In this document: piece after piece, positions 1 to 14,699 of the stretch | Layout: the number at the start of each line of letters is the position of its first letter | How positions within the stretch are numbered: the stretch's first letter is position 1 | DNA from: a virus | Lineage: Duplodnaviria; Heunggongvirae; Uroviricota; Caudoviricetes | Strand: one strand, 5' to 3' | IMG/VR virus record: IMGVR_UViG_2850796239_000003 | Span: 1-14,699 of that record | DNA: 14,699 nucleotides | Notes under the pieces: model-generated | Told to the model about the DNA's origin: nothing | The model's input: only the letters and a program-made list of their open reading frames with translations | Database searches by the model: none | Position numbers and translations under genes: made by a program

Positions 1-201
1 TTACCCATTGGCGCGGCTTAAGAGCTTATTTTTGAATTCACAATGGTCACGATATAACCATCTTGCTCGCCCGTGGATAACTTTGGCTTTTGGCAGGTCG
101 CCGGACTTAATCCGGTCATAGATGAAGGTTTTACCAAAGCCAGTATCAGCCATGATGAATTTCAAATCAACCAGTGAATCAGGTTGTAGTTCGTGTTGCA
201 T
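1..201 (-). CDS. AlpA/TorI-family winged-helix prophage regulator, excisionase-like (66 aa)
   Basis: Complete ORF, ATG at 201-199 and stop at 3-1. GGAG lies 9 nt upstream of the ATG. The translation has the AlpA/Xis-type pattern (TGFGKTFIYDRIKSGDLP...GRARWL) and the 66-aa size typical of TorI-like recombination directionality factors. Family call is from memory, not a search. Confidence 0.7.
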   Translation of the reverse strand: MQHELQPDSLVDLKFIMADTGFGKTFIYDRIKSGDLPKAKVIHGRARWLYRDHCEFKNKLLSRANG

Positions 202-246
202 GAGTGCTATCTCCGAATATGGAATCGAACCTGCAAATCAGGTAAT

Positions 247-267
247 AAAAAAACCGCATTGATGCGG
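247..267 (-). terminator. Putative rho-independent terminator after the 346-561 ORF
   Basis: On the minus strand: stem CCGCA / TGCGG with loop TCAA, followed by TTTTTTTATT. Confidence 0.45.
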
Positions 268-345
268 CGATGGTAGGTCTGGATATCTTGATAAATGAAA
301 ATACCTCATCGAGTGTGAGGCGGTGTGATTTCTTTATTTACACTC

Positions 346-561
346 TTAATGTTTGTCAGTGAATGGTTTCCCCATCTCCAGTAATGCCTTACTCATCTCA
401 TTTCGTAACTCTATAGCCATCCTGACGGCTTCAACCTGTGCAGGATGTCGGTTAATTGCTGGAGAATATCGTCGGGAGCGAAGGATTGAGAAAACAAAGA
501 TAATGCAAGCAACTATCTGAATTGCATTGCATGTTATTGATACAATGTGAATTGCAGCCAT
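346..561 (-). CDS. Hypothetical small single-pass membrane protein (71 aa)
   Basis: ORF with a hydrophobic N-terminal ~28 residues (IHIVSITCNAIQIVACIIFVFSIL) followed by a basic RSRR and a charged C-terminal tail. Weak GGGG RBS. The start sits immediately after the upstream terminator U-tract, so expression is uncertain. Confidence 0.3.
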   Translation of the reverse strand: MAAIHIVSITCNAIQIVACIIFVFSILRSRRYSPAINRHPAQVEAVRMAIELRNEMSKALLEMGKPFTDKH

Positions 562-572
562 CTACTACCCCA

Positions 573-598
573 AATAAAAAAACCGCCATCAGGCGGCT
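573..598 (-). terminator. Putative rho-independent terminator after the zinc-ribbon gene
   Basis: On the minus strand: GCCGCC TGAT GGCGG(T) hairpin followed by TTTTTTTATTT. Confidence 0.55.
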
Positions 599-662
599 TG
601 GTGTTCTTTCAGTTCTTCAATTCGAATATTGGTTACATTGTTTTCATATATGAATAAATAAA

Positions 663-842
663 TTAGCTTTTTTCGTTGCCTTCGCGTTCTTTATTAATTT
701 TGACAAACTCGTTTTTACCAAGCTCTCCAAATGCGTCTTTAGAGTCGTTGTATCCGCAATCGCAGCACACATAATCACCAGACCATTCACGCATTGTTTT
801 TTCTTTTGCAATATTTCCAGAACCGCATTTTGGACAAGACAT
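663..842 (-). CDS. Standalone zinc-ribbon protein, YgiT/MqsA-N-terminal-like (59 aa)
   Basis: Start taken at the ATG at 842-840, which has GGAGG 7 nt upstream; the ORF-track start at 875 is a TTG with no RBS. Two Cys pairs, CPKCG and CCDCG, about 20 residues apart, then an acidic/lysine-rich tail. The resemblance to the MqsA zinc-binding domain (MKCPVC...YCVHC...ESDAF) is from memory. Confidence 0.55.
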   Translation of the reverse strand: MSCPKCGSGNIAKEKTMREWSGDYVCCDCGYNDSKDAFGELGKNEFVKINKEREGNEKS

Positions 843-979
843 ATCACTACCTCCAAAGCATGAGTGAGATGACAACGTAACATTGATTGGAGATTAACAA
901 TAGATTGCTGATGTAAAAGATATGTATAAGCTTCGCTTTCAAAGTGGAGGATCTGATAGCGGCATCTAGGCTGTGTCCC

Positions 980-1495
980 TTAATTACGTAAGCGTTGATA
1001 AAAGAGTCGGATGCAGCCCAGTTTCACCATCGCCAGGTAATTTCTCGCCGTTTTGTCGTAACGCGTGGCGATGCGGCGATATTCTTTCAGCCGCCCAAAG
1101 CACCGTTCAACGACATTACGATTGCGGTACGCATCACGATCAAGCTGTGCACGTCCATCCGATGCCATTTTCTCATTTGACTTTCGGGGGATTACTGCCT
1201 TTATACCGTTATTTTTCAGCTCGTTGCGCAATGCGCGCCCTGAATACGCTTTATCAGCCAGTACCGCATGTCCACGGCGTTTCATGCTGCCGTTCTGACG
1301 CTGAACGCCAATCCCGTCCAGAAGTCGTTGCGCGAACTGGCTTTCATGAGCTTGTCCGGGGCTTAGCACGATATTTAACGGGAGGCCACTTCCGTCTGTT
1401 GCCAGATGGATTTTGGTGCCAAAACCGCCGCGAGAGCGACCCAGCCCATTATCTCCGTCGATATCGGGATGTTTTTTTGAGCACCGGCGGCACAT
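980..1495 (-). CDS. IS5-family transposase orfB (DDE catalytic part, -1 frame relative to orfA)
   Basis: Contains GLGRSRGGFGTKIHLATDG, LADKAYSG and the Y-x2-R-x3-E-x6-K signature (DAYRNRNVVERCFGRLK). Overlaps orfA by about 120 nt across an A-run. Confidence 0.85.
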   Translation of the reverse strand: MCRRCSKKHPDIDGDNGLGRSRGGFGTKIHLATDGSGLPLNIVLSPGQAHESQFAQRLLDGIGVQRQNGSMKRRGHAVLADKAYSGRALRNELKNNGIKAVIPRKSNEKMASDGRAQLDRDAYRNRNVVERCFGRLKEYRRIATRYDKTARNYLAMVKLGCIRLFYQRLRN

Positions 1496-1824
1496 TTCAG
1501 CGCCCGGATATTACTGCCATCCAGCGCGGTGGCAGACCAGTCAATAAAGCCGTTTGCATCAAGTAGCGAAAGCAACCTGTTGAAAATAATATTAATCACG
1601 CCTGACTTTGACCATCGGTTAAAGCGGTTATAAACAGTTTTCCATGACCCATATCGTTCGGGTAAATCGCGCCATGGTGCACCGGAACATAACACCCAGA
1701 ACATGCCATTGATGATTTTACGGTGCTCAGCCCATGGGCGTCCGGCCCGTGGTGTGGCGGGTTCAGGAGGTAACAGGGGCTTGATGATGGTCCATGCCTC
1801 ATCGGGAAGGTCGTAGCGAGCCAT
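1375..1824 (-). CDS. IS5-family transposase orfA (149 aa, N-terminal DNA-binding part)
   Basis: MARYDLPDEAWTIIKPLLP...GRPWAEHRKIINGMFWVLCSGAPWRDLPERYGSWKTVYNRFNRW, the conserved N-terminal module of IS5/IS427-type transposases. Confidence 0.85.
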   Translation of the reverse strand: MARYDLPDEAWTIIKPLLPPEPATPRAGRPWAEHRKIINGMFWVLCSGAPWRDLPERYGSWKTVYNRFNRWSKSGVINIIFNRLLSLLDANGFIDWSATALDGSNIRALKCAAGAQKNIPISTEIMGWVALAAVLAPKSIWQQTEVASR

Positions 1825-1884
1825 AGTTCAATATGTTGTGTAAACAGACAGTTACTATAGCTCAGATGATTAAGGGACACAGCC

Positions 1885-2901
1885 TACATCACTGTTGTTG
1901 TTGAATATCAGCAACTGGAGGAAGCGATCAAGCTTAACCAACTGGAAGAAATTCTCGCGCCGGTTCGCCAGCGAATCGTTACCGACCTTGAAACAGAGCT
2001 TGCTCACTTCATGATGAATAACGGTGCGTTGTCACTTGGTAGCCCCAATACTCCAATCACCAAATGGTCTGATGTTGCGCAGACGGCATCTTTCCTGAAA
2101 GACCTCGGCGTTAATGAAGGTGAAAACTATGCTGTAATGGATCCATGGTCTGCACAGCGACTTGCTGATGCGCAGACTGGTTTGCACGCTTCAGATCAAT
2201 TGGTTCGTACTGCATGGGAGAATGCACAGATCCCAACCAATTTTGGCGGCATTCGCGCACTGATGTCTAATGGGCTTGCCTCTCGTACGCAGGGGGCATT
2301 TGGCGGAACACTGACAGTCAAAACACAGCCAACTGTTACCTATAACGCAGTTAAAGACTCATACCAGTTCACTGTAACATTGACCGGAGCGACAGCCAGC
2401 GTTACAGGTTTTCTGAAAGCTGGTGATCAGGTTAAATTCACCAATACCTACTGGCTGCAACAGCAGACCAAACAGGCGTTGTATAACGGAGCCACACCAA
2501 TTAGCTTCACTGCAACGGTTACTGCTGATGCTAATTCAGACAGCAGTGGCAATGTGACGGTTACGCTTTCTGGTGTTCCGATTTATGACACTACAAACCC
2601 GCAGTACAACTCTGTAAGTCGTCAGGTAGCGGCAAACGATGCCGTATCTGTAGTAGGCACTGCTAGCCAGACAATGAAGCCAAACCTGTTCTATAACAAG
2701 TTCTTCTGTGGACTTGGCTCTATCCCACTGCCGAAACTGCACAGTATTGATTCTGCTGTTGCAACATATGAAGGTTTCTCCATCCGCGTACATAAATACG
2801 CAGATGGCGATGCCAACGTGCAAAAAATGCGCTTTGACTTACTGCCTGCATATGTGTGCTTTAACCCTCACATGGGCGGTCAGTTCTTCGGTAATCCGTA
2901 A
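1885..2901 (+). pseudogene. Major capsid (coat) protein of a P22-like phage, 5'-truncated at the IS boundary (about 338 C-terminal codons)
   Basis: The reading frame is open from the first base after IS copy 1 to TAA at 2899-2901, with no plausible start or RBS at the 5' end. It lies immediately upstream of clear gp4 and gp10 homologs, the coat position in P22-like late operons, and shows loose local similarity to P22 coat. No N-terminal coat sequence exists left of the IS. Confidence 0.65.
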
Positions 2902-2905
2902 TAAC

Positions 2906-2930
2906 AAGGGGCTTACGCCCCTTTTATGTT
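2906..2930 (+). terminator. Rho-independent terminator/attenuator just downstream of the coat gene
   Basis: AAGGGGC TTAC GCCCCTT hairpin followed by TTATGTTTT on the plus strand, 5 nt after the coat stop. Confidence 0.55.
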
Positions 2931-2943
2931 TTAAGGAAACAAT

Positions 2944-3129
2944 ATGGATCGCATGAGTGTATTCCTTGCCGCAGATAACGAATCCGGGCATGTACAGGCC
3001 GTTATCGCAGAAAAAGACTTCCAGTTTTTCGAAAAGTTGGGCTTTGTTGCCTCAGTTGATGAATTGAAACCGACCAGTAAGCGAGGTCGTAAGGCGGCAG
3101 ACAATGGCAACAGTACTGACAAAGGGTGA
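2944..3129 (+). CDS. Hypothetical small protein between coat and gp4 (61 aa)
   Basis: ATG preceded by AAGGAAA. Position matches the small ORF found between coat and the gp4 homolog in Sf6-like genomes. Overlaps the gp4-like start by 26 nt. Confidence 0.45.
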   Translation: MDRMSVFLAADNESGHVQAVIAEKDFQFFEKLGFVASVDELKPTSKRGRKAADNGNSTDKG

Positions 3130-3586
3130 GATCGTCCTTTTTGCGCTTCGTAAGTTTGCTATTGCTTCTAATGCATCGCTGACTGATGTTGAGCCGCAAT
3201 CAATTGAAGATGGTGTAAATGATCTGGAAGATATGATGTCCGAGTGGATGATTAACCCCGGCGACATTGGTTACGCTTTCGCAACTGGAGATGAGCAGCC
3301 ATTACCAGATGATGAGTCAGGTCTTCCAAGAAAATACAAACACGCAGTAGGCTATCAGTTATTGCTGAGAATGCTATCTGATTACAGCCTTGAGCCAACT
3401 CCGCAAGTTCTCAGTAACGCCCAACGCTCATATGATGCCTTGATGACCGACACTCTGGTTGTTCCTTCAATGCGACGACGTGGAGATTTTCCTGTAGGAC
3501 AGGGTAATAAATATGACGTGTTCACATCTGACCGATATTATCCAGGCGATCTCCCTCTGATTGATGGCGATATCCCAAATTCATAG
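3104..3586 (+). CDS. Head-to-tail adaptor / packaged-DNA stabilisation protein, P22 gp4-like (160 aa)
   Basis: Translation aligns along its N-terminal half with recalled P22 gp4 (window ...[34 protein letters not shown] versus P22 ...[34 protein letters not shown]). Correct size and position. Confidence 0.88.
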   Translation: [160 protein letters not shown]

Positions 3587-3594
3587 GTGAATAA

Positions 3595-5013
3595 ATGCCT
3601 ATTCAGCAACTTCCGCTTATGAAAGGTGTCGGCAAAGACTTTCGAAACGCCGACTATATCGACTATCTGCCAGTGAATATGCTGGCTACACCCAAAGAAA
3701 TCCTGAACAGCAGCGGATATCTTCGCTCATTCCCTGGCATTGCCAAACGCTCTGATGTGAACGGTGTATCTCGCGGCGTCGAGTACAACATGGCGCAGAA
3801 TGCTGTTTATCGTGTGTGTGGTGGCAAGCTGTACAAAGGAGAAAGTGAAGTCGGTGACGTCGCCGGAAGTGGTCGCGTATCAATGGCGCATGGTCGTACA
3901 TCTCAGGCGATAGGTGTTAATGGTCAACTGGTCGAGTATCGCTATGATGGCACGATTAAAACCGTCTCAAACTGGCCTACAGATAGCGGATTCACTCAGT
4001 ATGAGCTAGGTTCGGTTCGTGACATTACGCGCTTACGTGGGCGTTATGCGTGGTCAAAAGACGGTACTGATTCATGGTTTATCACTGACCTTGAAGACGA
4101 ATCACATCCTGACCGATACAGCGCACAATATCGCGCAGAATCTCAGCCTGATGGCATCATCGGCATAGGGACATGGCGAGACTTCATCGTCTGCTTTGGT
4201 TCATCGACGATTGAATATTTCTCCCTGACTGGTGCAACCACCGTTGGTGCTGCTTTGTATGTCGCCCAGCCATCATTGATGGTGCAAAAAGGCATCGCCG
4301 GGACTTACTGCAAAACGCCGTTTGCTGATTCCTATGCTTTCATCAGCAACCCGGCAACGGGTGCGCCGTCTGTGTACATCATCGGTTCCGGTCAGGTATC
4401 ACCAATCGCCAGCGCGAGCATTGAGAAAATACTTCGCTCCTACACTGCTGATGAACTGGCTGATGGTGTGATGGAGTCTCTGCGATTTGATGCGCATGAG
4501 TTGCTGATTATCCATCTTCCGCGTCACGTCCTTGTGTACGATGCATCTTCAAGCGCCAATGGTCCGCAATGGTGTGTGCTGAAAACAGGCCTGTATGACG
4601 ATGTGTACCGCGCTATCGACTTCATTTACGAAGGCAATCAGATAACGTGCGGCGATAAGCTGGAATCCGTGACCGGGAAACTGCAGTTCGATATCAGCAG
4701 CCAGTACGACAAGCAGCAGGAACACCTGCTGTTTACTCCGTTGTTCAAAGCGGATAACGCCAGATGCTTCGATCTGGAGGTGGAATCATCCACTGGCGTA
4801 GCTCAGTACGCCGACCGCCTGTTCCTCTCTGCAACCACTGACGGCATCAATTACGGACGTGAGCAGATGATTGAGCAGAATGAACCGTTCGTTTACGACA
4901 AACGCGTTTTGTGGAAGCGAGTAGGGCGCATCAGGAAAAATGTCGGCTTCAAATTGCGCATTATCACGAAGTCACCTGTCACTCTGTCTGGCACTCAGAT
5001 AAGGATTGAGTAA
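3595..5013 (+). CDS. Packaged-DNA stabilisation / tail hub protein, P22 gp10-like (472 aa)
   Basis: N-terminus [49 protein letters not shown] matches recalled P22 gp10. Same length as P22 gp10. AGGTG RBS. Stop overlaps the next start (TAATG). Confidence 0.88.
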
Positions 5014-5861
5014 TGGCGGATTCGAATCTCAATACACCTGTTATTGTTCAGGCGACGCGGCTCGATACATCAATCCTTCCACGCAATATCTTCTCGCAGT
5101 CGTATCTGCTTTACGTTATCGCACAGGGTACTGATGTTGGTAACGTGGTGAATAAGGCCAACGAGTCCGGACAGGGCGCTTATGACGCGCAGGTAAGGAA
5201 CGATGAGCAGGATGTGATTCTGGTTGATCACGAAATTCGACTGGCATCAGCTGAAGCGAAGATACAGGACCACGAAACAAGGATCACTAACGCAGAAGCA
5301 GCGATAGTCGGCCTTGATTCGCGATTAACGACAGCAGAAAACGATATTGATTATCTGACTGATGAAGTTGTCGCCATTCAAAACACGCTTTCAGACCATG
5401 AAACGCGCATCGATGCTCTGGAGTATGCCACTACTCGCAAGAAGTCAGAGGTTGTTTACTCTGGCGTATCTGTAACCATCCCGACAGCGCCGACTAACCT
5501 TGTTAGCCTGCTGAAAACGCTCACGCCGTCATCCGGCTCGTTGGCACCATTCTTCGACACCGTTAACAACAAGATGGTTGTGTTCAACGAGAACAAAACC
5601 TTGTTCTTCAAGTTGTCGATTGTCGGGACGTGGCCCAGTGGAACCGCAAACAGGTCAATGCAGCTAACCTTTTCCGGCTCTGTTCCTGACACGTTGGTCA
5701 GCAGTCGTAATGCGGCGACAACAACCGATAACATCTTGTTAGCTACGTTCTTCAGCGTGGATAAAGACGGCTTTCTTGTCACAAATGGCAGCACGTTAAC
5801 CATTCAGTCAAATGGTGCGGCGTTTACTGCCACAACCATCAAGATAATCGCGGAGCAGTGA
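5013..5861 (+). CDS. Tail needle, P22 gp26-like N-terminus with C-terminal knob domain (282 aa)
   Basis: N-terminal ~60 residues ([43 protein letters not shown]...[16 protein letters not shown]) match recalled P22 gp26. A heptad-rich coiled-coil stretch is followed by a C-terminal domain of ~140 residues that P22 gp26 lacks, as in Sf6-type needles. Confidence 0.88.
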
Positions 5862-6316
5862 TGATTCAGTTCAAACCAACGCGAAACATCGACCTGATCG
5901 AAGCAGTAGGAAATCACCCTGACATTATCGCCGGGAGCAACAACGGCGATGGATACGACTACAAGCCTGAATGCCGTTACTTTGAGGTTAACGTGCATGG
6001 GCAGTTCGGCGGCATTGTTTACTATCAGGAGATTCAGCCGCTGACATTCGATTGCCACGCCATGTACCTGCCAGAGATTCGCGGCTTCAGCAAGGAAATC
6101 GGGCTGGCGTTCTGGCGATACATTCTGACTAACACCACCGTTCAGTGTGTCACATCGTTCGCTGCACGCAAATTCCGCCACGGGCAGATGTACTGCGCAA
6201 TGATTGGCCTTAAGCGTGTCGGAACCATCAAGAAATACTTTAAAGGCGTGGATGACGTGACGTTTTACAGCGCCACACGCGAAGAACTAATCGACTTCCT
6301 GAATCACGGGAGATAG
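5861..6316 (+). CDS. P22 gp14-like virion assembly protein (151 aa), by synteny
   Basis: ATG at 5861 overlaps the needle stop (TGATG) with GGAG 5 nt upstream; the ORF-track GTG at 5858 is less likely. Size and position match gene 14 between the needle and ejection-protein genes. Confidence 0.65.
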   Translation: MIQFKPTRNIDLIEAVGNHPDIIAGSNNGDGYDYKPECRYFEVNVHGQFGGIVYYQEIQPLTFDCHAMYLPEIRGFSKEIGLAFWRYILTNTTVQCVTSFAARKFRHGQMYCAMIGLKRVGTIKKYFKGVDDVTFYSATREELIDFLNHGR

Positions 6317-6318
6317 CT

Positions 6319-6856
6319 ATGTTATATGCATTTAAGCTGGGCAGAAAACTGCGCGGCGAGGAACCTTATTGCCCTGAAAAAGGCGGGAAAGGTGGCTCCG
6401 ATAAAAGCGCAAAGTATGCAGCAGAAGCTCAGAAGTATGCCGCAGACCTGCAAAATCAGCAGTGGCAGACGATCATGAAAAACCTTGCTCCGTTCACGCC
6501 TCTTGCGGAGCAGTATGTTAACCAGCTTCAGAACCTTTCCAGTTTAGAAGGTCAGGGGCAGGCACTTAATCAGTATTACAACTCTCAGCAGTATAAAGAC
6601 CTTGCAGGTCAGGCTCGTTACCAGAGTCTTGCTGCTGCGGAGGCGACGGGTGGACTTGGTTCGACAGCCACAAGCAATCAACTGGCTACGATCGCGCCTA
6701 CTCTCGGTCAGTCTTGGTTATCAAACCAGATGAGCAATTACAACAATCTGGCAAACGTTGGGCTTGGTGCACTTCAAGGTCAGGCAAACGCCGGGCAGAC
6801 GTACGCCAACAACATGAGCAGCATTGCACAGCAAAGCGCAGCTCTTGCCGCTGCTA
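6319..6856 (+). pseudogene. Ejection protein, P22 gp7-like, 5' fragment interrupted by IS copy 2
   Basis: ORF starts at ATG 6319 and runs into the IS, where the frame terminates artificially (...ARLCPLII*). Q/N/A-rich ejection-protein-like composition. Position matches gene 7. Confidence 0.7.
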
Positions 6857-6872
6857 GGCTGTGTCCCTTAAT
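6857..6872. repeat. Left terminal inverted repeat of IS copy 2
   Basis: GGCTGTGTCCCTTAAT, a perfect reverse complement of 7757-7772. Confidence 0.85.
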
Positions 6873-6916
6873 CATCTGAGCTATAGTAACTGTCTGTTTA
6901 CACAACATATTGAACT

Positions 6917-7366
6917 ATGGCTCGCTACGACCTTCCCGATGAGGCATGGACCATCATCAAGCCCCTGTTACCTCCTGAACCCGCCACACCACGGGCCGGA
7001 CGCCCATGGGCTGAGCACCGTAAAATCATCAATGGCATGTTCTGGGTGTTATGTTCCGGTGCACCATGGCGCGATTTACCCGAACGATATGGGTCATGGA
7101 AAACTGTTTATAACCGCTTTAACCGATGGTCAAAGTCAGGCGTGATTAATATTATTTTCAACAGGTTGCTTTCGCTACTTGATGCAAACGGCTTTATTGA
7201 CTGGTCTGCCACCGCGCTGGATGGCAGTAATATCCGGGCGCTGAAATGTGCCGCCGGTGCTCAAAAAAACATCCCGATATCGACGGAGATAATGGGCTGG
7301 GTCGCTCTCGCGGCGGTTTTGGCACCAAAATCCATCTGGCAACAGACGGAAGTGGCCTCCCGTTAA
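6917..7366 (+). CDS. IS5-family transposase orfA (149 aa)
   Basis: Identical translation to copy 1 orfA. Confidence 0.85.
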   Translation: MARYDLPDEAWTIIKPLLPPEPATPRAGRPWAEHRKIINGMFWVLCSGAPWRDLPERYGSWKTVYNRFNRWSKSGVINIIFNRLLSLLDANGFIDWSATALDGSNIRALKCAAGAQKNIPISTEIMGWVALAAVLAPKSIWQQTEVASR

Positions 7367-7761
7367 ATATCGTGCTAAGCCCCGGACAAGCTCATGAAAG
7401 CCAGTTCGCGCAACGACTTCTGGACGGGATTGGCGTTCAGCGTCAGAACGGCAGCATGAAACGCCGTGGACATGCGGTACTGGCTGATAAAGCGTATTCA
7501 GGGTGCGCATTGCGCAACGAGCTGAAAAATAACGGTATAAAGGCAGTAATCCCCCGAAAGTCAAATGAGAAAATGGCATCGGATGGACGTGCACAGCTTG
7601 ATCGTGATGCGTACTGCAATCGTAATGTCGTTGAACGGTGCTTTGGGCGGCTGAAAGAATATCGCCGCATCGCCACGCGTTACGACAAAACGGCGAGAAA
7701 TTACCTGGCGATGGTGAAACTGGGCTGCATCCGACTCTTTTATCAACGCTTACGTAATTAA
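7246..7761 (+). CDS. IS5-family transposase orfB (DDE domain, -1 frame)
   Basis: As copy 1 orfB, with two Arg to Cys differences (TGC at 7504-7506 and 7615-7617 where copy 1 has CGC). Confidence 0.85.
   Translation: MCRRCSKKHPDIDGDNGLGRSRGGFGTKIHLATDGSGLPLNIVLSPGQAHESQFAQRLLDGIGVQRQNGSMKRRGHAVLADKAYSGCALRNELKNNGIKAVIPRKSNEKMASDGRAQLDRDAYCNRNVVERCFGRLKEYRRIATRYDKTARNYLAMVKLGCIRLFYQRLRN
7264..7270 (+). other. Candidate -1 programmed frameshift heptamer A AAA AAC joining orfA to orfB
   Basis: In the orfA frame the codons are caA AAA AAc. A -1 slip enters the orfB frame (..SKKHPDID..). The same motif occurs in copy 1 at 1471-1477 as a reverse complement. Confidence 0.5.
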
Positions 7762-7772
7762 GGGACACAGCC
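7757..7772. repeat. Right terminal inverted repeat of IS copy 2
   Basis: ATTAAGGGACACAGCC, a perfect reverse complement of 6857-6872. Confidence 0.85.
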
Positions 7773-7774
7773 TA

Positions 7775-7926
7775 ATGCCAATAAACCATCAAGTCTTCAG
7801 ACTGCAATTAGTGGCGGAACGTCTGGTGCGATTGCCGGTGCAGGTCTTGCCAGCCTTTTGGGAACATCAACACCTTGGGGCGCTGGCATTGGTGCTGGTA
7901 TCGGATTGCTTGGTTCGTTGTTTTAA
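7775..7926 (+). pseudogene. Ejection protein, P22 gp7-like, 3' fragment (about 50 codons)
   Basis: Removing the IS and one TA copy restores one continuous frame: ...AAN ANKPSSLQTAISGGTSGAIAGAGLASLLGTSTPWGAGIGAGIGLLGSLF, stop at 7924-7926. The rebuilt ORF is about 229 codons, the size I recall for P22 gp7. Confidence 0.65.
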
Positions 7927-7935
7927 GGGGTAATC

Positions 7936-9402
7936 ATGGCTACTTGGCAAGGATCAAATGGCGGATTGTTGGCTGGTATCGGCGGCGTCAACTCAAACGC
8001 TCCGAGCGTAAATGACATCGGCAATACGCTTCAGCTTATCAGGCAGAACAATGATATTGAGCGTTCAGGCGCTAACAATGTTGGGCTGACTGCTTTGCAA
8101 GGCCTTTCAGGTATTGCGGGGGTGTTTCAGCAGGAAAAGCAGGCTCAGCGGCAGAAAGAATTTCAGCAGGCATACGCTAATGCTTATGCGTCTGGTGATC
8201 GCGGTGCTTTGCGTCAGTTGGCTACTCAATATCCAGACCAGATTGAATCCGTTCGTAAAGGCATGGGATTCATTGATGAAGATCAGCGTAATTCTATCGG
8301 CACCTTAGCGGCTGGCGCACGCCTTGCGTCATCGTCTCCAGAAGCAATGCAATCATGGCTGCAAAACAACGCCAAGGAACTGACTCGCGTCGGTGTTGAC
8401 CCTAACAGCGTTGCTCAGATGTATCAGCAGAACCCTTCAGGATTTGGTGAGTTTGTTGATCACCTTGGAATGGCTGCTCTTGGTCCGATTGATTACTTCA
8501 ATGTTCAGGACAAGATGGCTGGTCGTGAGATTGACCGAGGCAGACTGGCAGAGACAATCCGCAGCAATCAGGCTGGAGAAGCACTTCAGGCGAGAGGGCA
8601 GGATATTAGCCGAGCAAATGCGTTAACGTCAGCATATGCACCAACAGCCGCAATGCAGAATTACAATCAGTACGCGCAAATGTTAAAGGCGGATCCAGAT
8701 GGTGCAGCGGCATTTGCGGCAGCGGCGGGAATTAATCCCAATGCTAAGAAATTACTTAAGGTTGAAACCAATCCTGATGGCTCGGTAACTAAGTATTACA
8801 CCGATGGCAGCGAGGAAGCCGGAAAACTAAACCAACCTATATCTGGTGATGGCATTAAACCAATTAGCTTGCCACAAGCGCAAAGCATCATAGATAAGGC
8901 TAATGAGGGTTCCAAGAAGGCGGCAGGATTTGCTTTGCGATTAAAAGATTCAATGGACTCAATGAATCAGCTTAGTAAAAGCATTGACCCTAAGCGAGTT
9001 GCATTAATAAATCGCTCTCTTGGTGATGGGACTATTGCAAATTTAAGCCTATCACCAGCGGAGCAGCAATATATGGTAAATGCGAGAGACGCCTTGTATG
9101 CAATTTTGCGCCCAGAAACAGGTGCAGCAATTACTCTGCCAGAGATGCAGGAGTATTCCAAAATGTACCTGCCTCAGCCCGGTGATTCCAAGGCTGCTAC
9201 TGAAACAAAAATGCGAAAAATGCAGGGCCAATATAACTCATTACGTGGTCAGTCTGGTCGCGTTTATGATGCTTTGGTGGTTTCAAGTGCTGCAAATAGT
9301 CAACAACAGAGCAATAGCCAACAACCGGCAAATACCCAACAGCAGCAGAGTCAATCCGGATCATATACCTCAAAATCAGGCATTCAATTTACGGTGGAAT
9401 GA
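7936..9402 (+). CDS. Ejection (internal virion) protein, P22 gp20-like (488 aa), by synteny and size
   Basis: ATG at 7936 preceded by AAGGGG. Gly/Ala/Gln-rich. Q/S-rich low-complexity C-terminal tail. Stop overlaps the next start (ATGA). Confidence 0.7.
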
Positions 9403-11246
9403 TGAAAGTAACTGCAAACGGTAAGACATTTACCTTCCCTGATGGTACGAGCATGGAAGATATTGGCACCGCCATTGATGAGTATTTTGCTGGTCAGGCT
9501 GTTCAGCAACAAACAGTTAATCAGGCCAATAATGAACCAGCACGTGAAGAACCATCATTGATGCAACAAGCTGGCGATTGGCTCACAGGCGGGCAAAGTG
9601 CAGGGCAAATTGCAGAGCAGGCTGGTCGTGGTCTGGTAAACATACCATTTGACGTATTGCAGGGCGGCGCAAGTCTGATTAATGCAATCAGTCAGGGGCT
9701 TGGTGGACCCAAGGTTTTGGATGATGTTTATCGTCCAGTAGACAGACCGACAGACACCTACGCGCAAGCCGGTGAAACAATTGGTGGGTATTTAGTTCCA
9801 GGAGTTGGAACGGCAGGAAGCATGGCTATTGGATCACTGGCAGAGGCCGCAAATCAGAAAGGCGATTTCGCACAAAATGCAGCTAAAAATGCCGGAGTTA
9901 ACCTTGCCGCTCAGGGTGTTCTTTCCGCAGCAGCAAAGGGAATAGGGCGTGGAATAACGGCTATAAAAGGTGATATTGCGCCAGAAGTGGCGAAGAAAAT
10001 TGCCACATCAGAATCGATGGGCGTGACACCAATGACATCTGATGTTATCCCGCCGAAAAATGCTTTCACTCGCGGCCTTACTCAGGATGCCGAGGGGGCT
10101 TTGCTCGGGACAGGCTCAAAGCGAGCGGAGCAATATGCAACGCGTAGTAAGCTGGTAAGTAATTATTTTGACCGTTTTGGTGAGTACAACCCTGATGATG
10201 TGGTGAAATCTCTGACCACCACGTTAAGGGGGCGGAAGGATGCCGCTGGCGCTGTTATCAATGACGTCACCAATAAAATGGGTAATGCCGCAGTTGATAC
10301 CACAAATACCATGAATGCTCTGAATACAGCGATCGCAAGACAGGAACGGCTTGGGACGTCTGCCAATCAAAGCCTGCTTACATCCTTGCGTAACCTACGT
10401 GAAGAATTAGCAAACCCTGCAACTGATTTGGATGTTACGTTTGATCTCTTGCGTCAGCACAGAACAGCATTTAGATCTAATGTTCAGGGAGATGCTATGG
10501 TCTTCCCCAACCAGGCAAAAGCAGCTACCAATATGGTAGAGAATGCAATGTCAAAAGACCTTCGTAACGCAGTTGCTAAAAACCTCGGTGCATCAGACGC
10601 AGCAAAATACCTTAAAGCAAATTCCGATTATGCAAACGTTTATAATAAGGTGCTTAATAAAAACATTGCTAACAAGCTCAACAAGGCAAGCAGTGAAGCC
10701 AGTCCTGAACTTATAAATACCGTTGTATTAAGCAGAAAACCATCTGACGTGAAACGAATCTGGAGCGCACTGGATGATAAGGGGAAAGATGCTATGCGTG
10801 CAGCTTACGTCAGCAAAATAGCGGAAAAGGCCGGGGACTCTCCAGCCAAGTTCATCACTGAAGTTAATAAGCTGAAATCTCAGTCAGGCGGTGAAATTTA
10901 CAACACTATTTTTTCTGGAAAGCACATGAAAGAGCTTGATGCTCTTCATGAAGTTCTACAGCAAACAGCAAGGTCAGACACCGCAAATGTAGTAACTCAG
11001 ACGGGGCAATCGCAAGCCAACAGGATAAGGACGATTGGCGCAACTGCGACCCTTGGCGTATCAATGGGGCTTGAGGCTGGTTTTGGTGCAATGATGCGCT
11101 TGTATGAGTCCAAAGCAGCAAGGAATGCTCTCTTACGTCTGGCAAACACTAAAACTGGAACGCCAGCTTATGAAAGAGCGCTAAATAATGCTGCAAATGC
11201 GATACGCCCTATACTTTCAAGCCAAATTACAGCAGAACAGCAATAA
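9399..11246 (+). CDS. Ejection (internal virion) protein, P22 gp16-like (615 aa), by synteny and size
   Basis: Last gene of the plus-strand late block. The length is close to the ~609 aa I recall for P22 gp16. N-terminus [16 protein letters not shown]. Confidence 0.7.
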
Positions 11247-11260
11247 AAGATAAGATATAA

Positions 11261-11554
11261 CTACCTGATATTACTGCTACTGTTGCATGTTACCGTGTTT
11301 CCAAATCCTGAATTGCAGTTTGTATATGTGTCAACGCGTGTTGGGTAAGGTTGAGTTATAACAGGCTGGCGCGCTTTTTGCTCGATCGCTTGCATTGTGT
11401 TTACAGCCTGGTAATTCAATAAAGCCTGCTGGAATGCTTGGCTTTGTGCTATTTGTTGGGCTTGTTCTTGGCTTTGTAATTGAACATAAAGATTCTGAAG
11501 CTCAAGTCTTGCCTTCATCGACACCTTGCCCGAGCATCTTTGCAGCAAGGACAT
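11261..11554 (-). CDS. Hypothetical Q-rich protein (97 aa; possibly the frameshifted 3' part of the lipoprotein gene)
   Basis: ORF in a different frame, overlapping the lipoprotein ORF by 53 nt. No good RBS at the first ATG; an internal ATG at 11518 has AAGGTG only 3 nt upstream. Gln-rich helical segment and Cys/Asn-rich C-terminus. Confidence 0.3.
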   Translation of the reverse strand: MSLLQRCSGKVSMKARLELQNLYVQLQSQEQAQQIAQSQAFQQALLNYQAVNTMQAIEQKARQPVITQPYPTRVDTYTNCNSGFGNTVTCNSSSNIR

Positions 11555-11726
11555 ACAGCTTAGGTGTTGGTGCTGATGCCATGCGTGAGTCGTTCTTCAC
11601 ACTGGCATCAAGGCAATTAGCCATATCGCTAAGCTTTTGATAGCGTTGTTCGCAACTTGCTTGATAGTCACTTACTTTTGCGCATCCAACCAGCAGAAGC
11701 GGGATAATTAACAGTGATTTTTTCAT
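11502..11726 (-). CDS. Small lipoprotein (74 aa) at the sieA-equivalent position
   Basis: Signal peptide with lipobox MKKSLLIIPLLLVGC and Cys at +1. AGGAG upstream of the ATG at 11726. Lies between gp16-like and mnt, where P22 carries sieA. Confidence 0.55.
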   Translation of the reverse strand: MKKSLLIIPLLLVGCAKVSDYQASCEQRYQKLSDMANCLDASVKNDSRMASAPTPKLYVLAAKMLGQGVDEGKT

Positions 11727-11796
11727 ATGGTTAACTCTCCTTAGTTTTTCACAGGATATCATGAAGGCAATGCCATTTTAGCCGGAAACTAGATTT

Positions 11797-12063
11797 CTAT
11801 GTTTCCTTTTTATTATTGCTATACATGGTCTTAAGCGTTTCAAAAACCATTTTCTTAACCATATCAGATTGTTGTTCTGCCATACGCTCTGCATCGTCAA
11901 TGTAAACTGATGCAGAGCTTTGTTTATCCAATGATTCCTCAATCGCTGCAATTATCTCTGAGTTCAGCGATCTGTTATTCATCTTCGCACGCTGTTTAAT
12001 TTTCGCGTGGAGTTCATGCGGAAGTATCAAGTGAAACTGCGCCTCGTCGTATTTGCTGTACAT
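11797..12063 (-). CDS. mnt: Mnt-like ribbon-helix-helix repressor (immI region), 88 aa
   Basis: Translation aligns with recalled P22 Mnt (window NNRSLNSEII...DDAERMAEQQSDMVKKMVFETLKTMY versus P22 NGRSMNSELL...NDAERLADEQSELVKKMVFDTLKDLY). Start at ATG 12063 is preferred; the alternative ATG at 12096 would give 99 aa. Confidence 0.8.
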   Translation of the reverse strand: MYSKYDEAQFHLILPHELHAKIKQRAKMNNRSLNSEIIAAIEESLDKQSSASVYIDDAERMAEQQSDMVKKMVFETLKTMYSNNKKET

Positions 12064-12134
12064 CCTTGATGCCTCACCAGTTGGGTGGAATGGCATCGTA
12101 ACCTACTGGATAAATACTCAATAGTACCATTTCG

Positions 12135-12139
12135 GTATG
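12135..12139. repeat. IS2 target-site duplication (GTATG), left copy
   Basis: The same 5-mer occurs at 13471-13475, directly abutting both IS2 termini. Confidence 0.85.
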
Positions 12140-12150
12140 TGGATTTGCCC

Positions 12151-13056
12151 CTATATTTCCAGACATCTGTTATCACTTAACCCATTACAAGCCCGCTGCC
12201 GCAGATATTCCCGTGGCGAGCGATAACCCAGCGCACTATGCGGATGCCATTCGTTATAATGCTCGAACGCCTCTGCAAGGTTCTTTGCTGCCGTTAACCC
12301 GTCTGGTTTGGGCATGATACTGATGTAGTCACGCTTTATCGTTTTCACGAAGCTCTCTGCTATTCCGTTACTCTCCGGACTCCGCACCGCCGTGTTCTTC
12401 GGTTCAAGTCCCAACATCCGGGCGAACTGGCGTGTTTCATTAGCCCGGTAGCATGAACCATTATCCGTCAGCCACTCCACTGGAGACGACGGAAGATCGT
12501 TGCCGAAGCGGCGTTCCACCGCTCCCAGCATGACGTCCTGTACTGTTTCACTGTTGAAGCCGCCGGTAGTCACCGCCCAGTGCAGTGCCTCACGATCACA
12601 GCAGTCCAGCGCGAACGTGACACGCAGTCTCTCTCCGTTATCACAGCAGAACTCGAACCCGTCAGAGCACCATCGCTGATTGCTTTCTTTCACGGCCACT
12701 CTGCCTGTATGTGCCCGTTTCGATGGCGGTACAGCAGGTTTTCGCTCAAGCAACAGCGCATTCTGGCGCATGATCCGGTAAACACGTTTGGCATTGATCG
12801 CAGGCATACCATCAAGTTCTGCCTGTCTGCGAAGCAGCGCCCATACCCGACGATAACCATACGTGGGCAGCTCTCCGATAACATGGTGTATACGGAGAAG
12901 CACATCCGTATCATCAGTGTGACGACTGCGGCGGCCATCCATCCAGTCATCGGTTCGTCTGAGAATGACGTGCAACTGCGCACGCGACACCCGGAGACAA
13001 CGGCTGACTAAGCTTACTCCCCATCCCCGGGCAATAAGGGCGCGTGCGCTATCCAC
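12151..13056 (-). CDS. insD: IS2 transposase OrfB (InsD), 301 aa
   Basis: Translation [28 protein letters not shown]... with an IS3-family DDE integrase core. Overlaps insC in the -1 frame. Confidence 0.9.
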
Positions 13057-13379
13057 TTTTTTGCCCGTCCATATTCAACGGCTTCTTTGAGGAGTTCATT
13101 TTCCATCGTTTTCTTGCCGAGCAGGCGCTGGAGTTCTTTAATCTGCTTCATGGCGGCAGCAAGTTCAGAGGCAGGAACAACCTGTTCTCCGGCGGCCACA
13201 GCAGTAAGACTTCCTTCCTGGTATTGCTTACGCCAGAGAAATAACTGGCTGGCTGCTACACCATGTTGCCGGGCAACGAGGGAGACCGTCATCCCCGGTT
13301 CAAAGCTCTGCTGAACAATTGCGATCTTTTCCTGTGTGGTACGCCGTCTGCGTTTCTCCGGCCCTAAGACATCAATCAT
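13014..13379 (-). CDS. insC: IS2 transposase OrfA (InsC), 121 aa
   Basis: [41 protein letters not shown]..., a helix-turn-helix protein. Start taken at the internal ATG at 13379 rather than the 136-aa ORF-track start. Confidence 0.9.
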
Positions 13380-13470
13380 CTGTACTCCAATGACTAGTCT
13401 AAAAACTAGTATTAAGACTATCACTTATTTAAGTGATACTGGTTGTCTGGAGATTCAGGGGGCCAGTCTA

Positions 13471-13475
13471 GTATG
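13471..13475. repeat. IS2 target-site duplication (GTATG), right copy
   Basis: Identical to 12135-12139. Confidence 0.85.
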
Positions 13476-13520
13476 CAATCACATCATGGTTGCATCATAT
13501 CATTCGTCTGGAGCAATGAA

Positions 13521-14676
13521 ATGTCAGATATCACCGCAAATGTTGTGGTAAGCATGCCTTCGCAACTCTTCACTATGGCTCGTTCTTTTAAAGCGGTTGC
13601 CAATGGCAAAATTTATATCGGTAAAATTGACACGGATCCGGTAAATCCTGAAAACCAGATTCAGGTTTATTTAGAGAACGAAGACGGCTCTTACGTTCCT
13701 GTTTCACAACCAATCATCATTAACGCTGCTGGTTACCCTGTATATAACGGACAGATTGCCAAATTCGTTACCGTGCAAGGCCATTCTATGGCTGTTTATG
13801 ATGCGTACGGTGCGCAGCAGTTTTATTTTCCGAATGTGCTGAAGTACGACCCGGATCAGCTTGAGAAAAGATTGTCGTTAAACACGGGAGCTTCCCTGAT
13901 TGGTACATATTCAGGAGCATCGATTCAGTCGGAGATTGACTGTATTAATGAAAGCATTGAAATTATCAATAATGACGAACTTCCAAATCTATCGCTAGGG
14001 GTGGCATCATCTATAAAAACATCGGTCCAAATAATTGATGAAATTAAAGATCCATCTATTTCTTATGATGCATTTGGTAACTCCGTGTTCTACAATGGCC
14101 GCAATTTATTTTGCTTCAGGAGATCACCTGAGCATGTTGATACTTATACAGGCATGCACAGTGTGTGCATAGCAGAAATACTCAACAATGGAGCTTGTAA
14201 AATAATATGGGAATATACTGATAATACTGGCAATGCACCTAAAGATCCTACATTATCAGTCAGTAACCCAGGTAATACACTAATTATTTCTTTTCAGATT
14301 CATAATGTTTCATCTGATACATATACTTCTGGTATTATTGGATATCCTGATTTGTCAAATACTGGTAAGTTTTTATCAAGTTCTGAACTTACCACGGATC
14401 ATAACGTTTTTTTATGGGGTAATGTACTGCAAACTCCATCTGGAAATTTTATAACATCCAGATATAAAATTGATGGCACTGGTGTAGAGATAATTTCTTC
14501 ATCTGATACAAATTTAAACGAAAATACAACATGGTCTATAGTTAGTACACTTTCTGTTGGTTCGTTCCAGACAAGAACATCAGTTAATGAATGCAGTCTT
14601 TCATATTATAGAAATCAACTAGTTGCAATAGTCAGAACTCAGTCAGGCTCTTCTTTGGGTGGTTTTGGATATGCTA
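13521..14676 (+). pseudogene. Tailspike: P22 gp9-type head-binding N-terminal domain fused to a divergent AT-rich receptor-binding domain, 3'-truncated by IS copy 3
   Basis: ATG at 13521 with GGAG 7 nt upstream. The first ~110 residues ([50 protein letters not shown]...[12 protein letters not shown]...NVLKYDPDQ) match the recalled P22 tailspike head-binding domain; the rest is unrelated and visibly AT-rich. The frame runs into the IS at 14677, leaving about 385 codons. Confidence 0.85.
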
Positions 14677-14699
14677 GGCTGTGTCCCTTAATCATCTGA
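14677..14699 (+). mobile_element. IS5-family IS (same element), copy 3, left end only (cut by the window edge)
   Basis: GGCTGTGTCCCTTAATCATCTGA is identical to the first 23 nt of copy 2 and is preceded by TA at 14675-14676. Confidence 0.8.

Follow-up and report, generated by a model that had tools for sequence, protein, structure and literature searches.

The DNA stretch analyzed here, 14,699 nucleotides (nt) long (positions 1 to 14,699 of IMG/VR record IMGVR_UViG_2850796239_000003; hereafter the window), is a decayed P22/Sf6-like prophage of Shigella boydii ATCC 9905, and its last open reading frame (ORF) is a truncated tailspike gene. Our main finding is that this gene is probably the dead remnant of a modular spike of 664 amino acids (aa), in which a P22-type head-binding domain carries a sialidase-type beta-propeller directed against an O-antigen that contains nonulosonic acid. 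Modular P22-type spikes are already known; what is new is a P22-type modular spike bearing an uncharacterized family with a sialidase fold. Receptor modules of tailspikes set the serotypes that a phage can infect, and they are a source of glycan-specific enzymes. To our knowledge, nearly all characterized O-antigen tailspikes are beta-helices, the K1 endosialidases being the only well-studied propeller spikes, and very few enzymes cleave the linkages of pseudaminic or legionaminic acid; such enzymes are in demand for work on glycoconjugates, for serotyping and against virulence. What the window copy offers is a pointer to intact alleles in Escherichia albertii and Escherichia coli, and the rare, unannotated family to which they belong is a plausible source of nonulosonic-acid-specific endoglycosidases. 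The architecture of the spike, its fold class, the conservation of its residues, its damage by insertion sequences (ISs) and the mobility of its module are documented below; its enzymatic activity and its substrate we infer.

The tailspike ORF lies on the plus strand and runs from an ATG at 13521 to a TGA at 14697-14699, a stop codon that falls within IS sequence. The native sequence ends at 14676, in a TA target just past codon 385, and the fragment present in the window corresponds to the 5' 58% of the modular gene. Its residues 1-113 (13521..13859, plus strand) form a P22/Sf6-type head-binding (virion attachment) domain, as identified by Pfam, by alignment to Sf6 gp14 and by megablast. The Pfam model Head_binding (PF09008) matches these residues over its full length (model positions 1-113) with an E-value of 4.9e-67, and Sf6 gp14 (PDB 7sg7) aligns to residues 1-117 with an E-value of 8.5e-64, a handful of residues being different; among PDB sequences, the N-terminal domains of Sf6 gp14 and P22 gp9 match with E-values of 1e-44 to 1e-64. 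These alignments confirm an earlier proposal, made in a preliminary description of the sequence, that residues 1 to about 110 are P22-tailspike-like. At the DNA level, the 5' ends of P22-like tailspike genes from phages and E. coli genomes are 88-96% identical by megablast, and the match breaks off at about nt 339-356 of the gene, that is, at about 13852-13875 of the window. The genomic position is also that of a P22-like tailspike: 5' of the gene lie the P22-like late-region genes gp4, gp10, gp26, gp14, gp7, gp20 and gp16 and an Arc/Mnt-like gene (immI remnant), and the gene order of an intact prophage, L006, agrees with this late region (ejection genes, immI remnant, tailspike). The spike thus carries both PF09008 and the position that define the P22-like tailspike class, but where this class has a right-handed parallel beta-helix, the structure models described below predict a propeller and a beta-sandwich.

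Beyond the head-binding domain, a recombination junction (residues about 114-120) and a neck or linker (residues about 121-175) occupy 13860..14045 (plus strand), as delimited by the limits of similarity and by a model computed with AlphaFold2 (AF2). P22-like spikes are similar as far as about residue 117, and the other carriers of the module from about residue 121 (TGASLIG) onward; the junction is therefore confined to about five residues. The composition switches at the same place. Up to the junction (13521-13865), the tailspike has a guanine plus cytosine content (GC) of 0.438, and of 0.44 at third codon positions (GC3), versus 0.349 and 0.23 in the remainder (13866-14675); the upstream part of the window (1-13520) has a GC of 0.482 (z about 7.6). 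Only 2 of 1389 sliding windows of 810 nt are equally GC-poor, and both overlap this remainder, which is the lowest such stretch in the window; within the junction and neck (13860..14045), GC is already 0.37. At the protein level, Asn, Ser, Thr and Ile together make up 24% of residues 1-115 versus 43% of residues 116-385. The clear drop in GC reported in the preliminary description for about 13950-14670, and the richness in these four residues, are both borne out. The same description had ascribed the domain to a lower-GC donor; of this, it is the low GC that stands, and the propeller module is somewhat GC-poorer than its flanks in other carrier phages as well.

An intact allele of the spike, P0044, is 664 aa long, has the same head-binding domain and is 99% identical to the window protein, from which it differs at 4 of 385 residues. 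Its carriers are E. albertii, E. coli and S. boydii, and conservation of the chimeric form of 664 aa extends to 19 sequences. Both P0044 and a 763-aa E. coli protein, P0047, were recovered by profile query; residue numbers throughout are those of P0044, which coincide with those of the window protein. P0047 has the module at 77% identity in the profile search (71% by BLASTP) behind a different N-terminus, for which no Pfam domain is precomputed and which is similar to that of the protein P0006, of the T7-tail-fibre type. Relatives of the module at 43-51% identity were found by tblastn of phage genomes: the 'tail fibers protein' of E. coli phage vB_EcoM-ZQ1 (Ackermannviridae), the spike of Pectobacterium phage Rambam (P0003; Autographiviridae) and gp17 of phages phiA41 and phiA38 (Schitoviridae). 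Among the carriers are the E. coli protein WP_410406829 and an IMG/VR viral contig, the latter with the same module at 52% identity. In the phages of these three families and in the contig, the module (43-52%) stands behind Tail_spike_N adaptors; taking the carriers together, the N-terminal adaptor is Tail_spike_N alone, Tail_spike_N with a T7 tail-fibre N-terminal domain, or the unassigned E. coli N-terminus. Their match covers the propeller and the beta-sandwich at 43-77% identity and continues for about 280 residues beyond the point at which the window copy is cut by the IS; all are intact, and none is functionally annotated.

The family is small. An exhaustive HMMER search of 1.84 billion proteins gave only 41 representatives at E <= 0.001, four of them close, and the family has neither a Pfam nor a PHROG model. 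Residues 116-385 had no match in Pfam, PHROGs or PDB sequences, and no megablast or blastn match in 5,426 complete E. coli genomes; a one-genome-per-species contig scan returned no relative. The C-terminal fragment also drew a blank in a word-indexed protein search, a failure of sensitivity, given the relatives found by tblastn, HMMER and profile query.

Because the module occurs on other virion adaptors in four further phage/prophage lineages, comparison of the sequences supports its horizontal exchange among phage types, presumably via recombination at the conserved junction TGA.LIG. The chimeric tailspike with a swapped receptor module, as it had been described from the window sequence, is supported by this recurrence of the module, traced by BLAST of the receptor domain, on different N-termini. 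It could be argued instead that no swap took place, that the C-terminal part has been joined to this head-binding domain from the start and that its low GC reflects a local mutational or codon bias, and the conservation of the 664-aa form itself would agree with this. We consider such a history highly improbable: the module sits on several other N-terminal domains, the head-binding domain joins many unrelated receptor domains, its high DNA identity to P22-like genes ends abruptly at about codon 115, and GC3 falls to about half at the module boundary.

The preliminary description could not place the receptor domain in a known tailspike enzyme class. The sequence libraries were indeed empty, with no high-identity match to a common tailspike class in Pfam, PHROGs or PDB sequences, but structure prediction gives a sialidase-like propeller. 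In the AF2 model of the Rambam homolog P0003, the propeller spans residues about 140-460, with a predicted local distance difference test score (pLDDT) of about 80-97, mostly above 90. In that of the intact allele P0044, a neck helix (residues 135-150) precedes a propeller at about 175-500 (pLDDT about 77-97), and a C-terminal beta-sandwich is confidently predicted at about 520-625. The models show six blades, as in the sialidase superfamily, and on the strength of these models and of the Foldseek matches given next we firmly place the module among the six-bladed beta-propellers of this superfamily (clan GH-E of the glycoside hydrolases, GH). A Foldseek search with the P0003 model had the Pseudomonas aeruginosa pseudaminidase as its top match (E-value 1.5e-11), and the best TM-scores of the P0044 model (0.60-0.66) are to sialidases and to GH93. 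Sequence profiles give faint signals in the same direction: the family profile matches the K1F endosialidase (endoNF) with an E-value of 0.0095 over 80 residues, hhalign of the family against the CUS-3 endosialidase gives an E-value of 3.8e-4 with a probability of 36%, and Pfam BNR_2 is matched by 1 of 21 family members (E-value 1.9e-4). The window retains a truncated propeller, residues about 176-385 (14046..14676, plus strand), which comprises the first 3.5-4 or so of the six blades.

The predicted active site was examined by counting conservation over 46 homologs, many of which are only 15-25% identical. E357 and R372 are present in all 46, R200 in 43, and position 242 is Asp in 39 and Glu in 6; of the 45 homologs that could be counted further downstream, 44 have R435, all have Y464, and 43 have an acidic residue at position 482 (E482). 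Along the chain, the spacings in the family are 15 from E to R, 63 from R to R, 29 from R to Y and 18 from Y to E. In Salmonella NanH, the catalytic set is E231, R246, R309, Y342 and E361, with spacings of 15, 63, 33 and 19, which the family residues mirror in order and spacing. Moreover, the invariant E and R of the family (E357 and R372) are aligned with E581 and R596 of endoNF, by profile and, for CUS-3, via hhalign. The catalytic set that these comparisons suggest would consist of an Arg triad (R200, R372 and R435), a Tyr464-Glu357 pair, the putative acid/base D242, and E482. In the sialidase superfamily, such a set comprises three Arg residues, a Tyr and a Glu that form the nucleophile pair, an Asp as acid/base, and a Glu by which the first Arg is stabilized. 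The window copy keeps R200, D242, E357 and R372, as well as H205 and Y315, and has lost R435, Y464 and E482. H205 stands five residues past the first Arg, where sialidases carry the RIP motif.

In the intact spike, the N-terminal head-binding domain would dock the protein onto the tail, and it is followed by a short helical neck, the six-bladed propeller and the C-terminal beta-sandwich. The propeller would be a receptor-destroying enzyme: its Arg triad would bind the carboxylate group of a 2-keto-3-deoxy nonulosonic acid (of the pseudaminic, legionaminic or sialic type) in the O-antigen, and the ketosidic bond of this sugar would be cleaved. Such cleavage would open the virion's way down to the outer membrane, as endosialidase tailspikes do on the K1 capsule. 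In intact prophages, the module appears to travel with a low-GC acyltransferase gene, whose product is probably an O-acetylase that blocks superinfection. Sialidases hold the carboxylate of nonulosonic acids by an Arg triad, and it is because of this grip that we infer a depolymerase of nonulosonic-acid O-antigens.

A hint to the substrate comes from phages phiA38 and phiA41. Gp17 of phiA41, which carries the module, is the sole large receptor-binding candidate among the annotated genes around the match. The host of both phages, Pectobacterium parmentieri SCC3193, has an O-polysaccharide backbone that contains beta-Pse4Ac5Ac7Ac, a form of pseudaminic acid (Pse), and a Pse-containing O-antigen is also found in S. 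boydii type 7 (PMC8879369). Transposon mutants resistant to phiA38 were hit in pseH, in pseB and in a putative O-antigen acetylase (PMC8304393); the requirement of these phages for a pseudaminic-acid O-antigen hints at what the module may recognize. It is conceivable, although we hold this with far less confidence than the sialidase-type spike itself, that the module defines a new family of endo-acting pseudaminidases, or more generally of nonulosonic-acid O-antigen depolymerases, that have the sialidase fold, have been shuffled among five phage/prophage lineages and are matched to Pse-containing O-antigens such as those of P. parmentieri SCC3193 and S. boydii type 7. If true, this would be the first known sialidase-fold enzyme to depolymerize an O-antigen via a Pse linkage of the backbone. 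If ATCC 9905 is, as we take it to be, a serotype 7 strain, the prophage spike would fit the O-antigen of its own host.

Two other functions of the propeller have to be weighed. It may be a glycosidase of clan GH-E with a neutral sugar as its substrate, in the manner of the GH93 exo-arabinanases, and with D/E242 and E357 as its two carboxylates. We find this unlikely: the three near-invariant Arg residues, the Tyr and the acidic residue 18 positions later match the order and spacing of sialidases, and GH93 chemistry can do without them. By profile alignment, too, the E and R of the family fall on catalytic residues of an endosialidase, and the receptor genetics of phiA38 indicate pseudaminic acid (PMC8304393). 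Likewise improbable is a propeller that binds the receptor like a lectin, without catalysis, and has retained nothing of the sialidases except their fold. Six-bladed propeller lectins and inactive paramyxovirus attachment proteins do appear lower in the structure lists; yet all seven catalytic-type positions are kept in homologs at 15-25% identity, which would be hard to explain without catalysis, and podovirus O-antigen tailspikes are typically enzymes.

Several points nevertheless weigh against a sialidase-type propeller that cleaves nonulosonic acid. For every member of the family, activity and binding are predictions from sequences and models, a point that also counts in favor of a lectin. 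In the Foldseek results of the P0044 model, GH43, GH93 and sialidases are mixed by E-value and the pseudaminidase is not among the top 50 matches; the fold therefore gives the clan and not the substrate. Beyond PF09008, the window protein matches no Pfam model, hence no sialidase or BNR model. The putative active site was mapped by order, spacing and partial profile alignment, and four further residues outside the classical sialidase set (Y182, F185, H205 and Y315) vary little or not at all across the 46 homologs. Finally, a literature search found no statement, in the papers that could be read, of the serotype of ATCC 9905 or of the O-types of the E. albertii carriers. A specific assignment as a pseudaminidase, suggested by the top match of the P0003 model, was not adopted, as this ranking was not reproduced with the P0044 model.

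Among known systems, CUS-3, a Lederbergvirus prophage of E. coli K1 with a GH58 endosialidase like K1F endoNF, resembles the spike described here in combining a P22-type head-binding N-terminus with a sialidase-fold propeller, not a beta-helix. Its N-terminal DNA is 92% identical, the invariant E and R of the present family have the endosialidase counterparts given above, and in both cases the spike gene closes the late operon, with a gene for a surface-polysaccharide O-acetyltransferase behind it, neuO in CUS-3 and Acyl_transf_3 here. The differences from CUS-3 and GH58 lie in the propeller and beyond it. Similarity between the propellers is marginal, the C-terminus is here a beta-sandwich, and intact homologs have no Pfam match to the C-terminal intramolecular chaperone domain (S74). 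Endosialidases, as far as we know, are without a Tyr at the nucleophile position, whereas it is kept in the present family; and the likely target is here an O-antigen, whereas that of CUS-3 is the polysialic acid capsule. Membership in GH58 was rejected, in view of the weak sequence link, the missing chaperone domain and the Tyr.

Sf6 gp14, P22 gp9 and HK620 gp9 share with the present spike the head-binding domain, the genomic position and the O-antigen-directed role in a P22-like virion; their receptor domain is a right-handed parallel beta-helix (endorhamnosidase or endo-N-acetylglucosaminidase), and here it is a six-bladed propeller. The GH33 exo-sialidases (such as Salmonella NanH, matched here as PDB 1dil) and the PA2794 pseudaminidase (PDB 2w38/3h6j) have a similar fold and a catalytic signature like the one predicted here. 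They differ in that no significant sequence similarity links them to the module, which is built into a virion spike and has the extra invariant residues listed above; PA2794 is the pseudaminidase absent from the top P0044 matches. The tailspike of Acinetobacter phage phiAB6 is a beta-helix with no propeller, and any likeness of it to the propeller module would be convergent. This spike is already known to break up a polysaccharide of pseudaminic acid (PMC5314372), and attack by a phage spike on surface polysaccharide with Pse in it is also the candidate function here.

The loss of the spike in the window is due in part to an ISSfl7-like element of the IS5 family, of which three copies are present. 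One full copy (6855..7774, plus strand; 916 base pairs (bp) and the flanking TA), recognized as a repeat and by its inverted repeats and transposase, lies within the gp7 ejection-protein gene; another is inverted (967..1886, minus strand; a 920-nt arm, 100% complementary), truncates the coat gene and abuts early-region genes. The third, identified as an exact repeat, is represented by its left end (14677..14699, plus strand), is clipped by the end of the window, and contributes the final 7 codons and the stop codon of the tailspike ORF. Indeed, the last 25 nt of the window (14675-14699) are identical to the end of the repeat at 967-1886 and 6855-7774, with a chance expectation of 0. The 916-bp element ends in inverted repeats of 16 nt (GGCTGTGTCCCTTAAT) and is flanked by TA on either side, and its transposase, NF033580 (IS5 family), is split over two overlapping ORFs (E-values 1.7e-38 and 6e-51). 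With a DDE transposase, terminal inverted repeats and multiple identical copies, it has the features of the IS5 family, and E. coli copies up to 99.8% identical are annotated as IS5 or ISSfl7 family.

On the source chromosome, the third IS copy continues past the end of the window as a full 920-nt copy. When the locus is compared with the intact prophage L006, 433 bp of tailspike sequence are missing after the complete IS; residues about 386-530 are therefore deleted, and the last 135 or so codons, a remnant of the C-terminal beta-sandwich, survive beyond the IS, outside the window. Insertion and deletion jointly remove propeller blades 5-6 with the three catalytic-type residues R435, Y464 and E482. 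The earlier statement that the IS cuts off the C-terminal part holds for the truncation itself, as seen in the repeat end and on the source chromosome, but not entirely, as the 433-bp deletion contributes and the beta-sandwich remnant survives. The window tailspike is a pseudogene with no remaining biological function. An IS2 (12140..13470, minus strand; TnpA and TnpB by NCBIfam, E-values 1e-218 and 4e-83) lies 50 bp upstream of the tailspike start codon and corresponds to a 1331-bp insertion relative to L006, with a 5-bp overlap or duplication. This IS2 parts the tailspike from the Arc/Mnt-like immI remnant and probably also from upstream transcription signals.

The exact window tailspike protein is on record from chromosome CP026875.1, strain-specific fusion proteins of the window are recorded under Shigella boydii ATCC 9905, and the host flank of the prophage is 99.2% identical to E. 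coli. The coat ORF (1887-2901) begins at profile position 126 of 385, and on the other side of the inverted IS (1-966) are small early-region ORFs, including an excisionase-like one, that mark the early/excision region. Terminase, portal, scaffold and most early genes are missing, and because the truncated coat gene and the early-region ORFs flank the inverted IS copy, this points to an IS-mediated deletion or rearrangement. The gp7 gene (6319-7933) is split by a simple IS insertion flanked by TA, its 3' 52 codons lying at 7775-7933, and an inversion between two inverted IS copies is not needed to account for it.

In the intact prophage, the Acyl_transf_3 gene and then an integrase lie downstream of the spike. 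The Acyl_transf_3 gene (10023-11126 in L006, with a GC of 0.32; 12503-13606 in a second locus, L007) is on the opposite strand, directly downstream of the propeller spike, in E. albertii, E. coli and S. boydii prophages. In the unrelated IMG/VR contig (L004), a 340-aa ORF at the same position (5668-6690) is acyltransferase-like by inspection of its sequence. This recurrence suggests that spike and O-acetylase form a linked cassette. Elsewhere in the window, the gp20-type DNA ejection protein (7936-9402) bears the name 'acyltransferase' in several NCBI records, probably a propagated misannotation. At 11261-11762 (minus strand), two overlapping ORFs (97 and 86 aa) each correspond to one half of phrog_6067 (161 aa) and look like a frameshifted pseudogene. 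Two copies of a terminator-hairpin-like motif, AATAAAAAAACCGC...GCGGC, are located between small early-region ORFs at 244-268 and 573-597.
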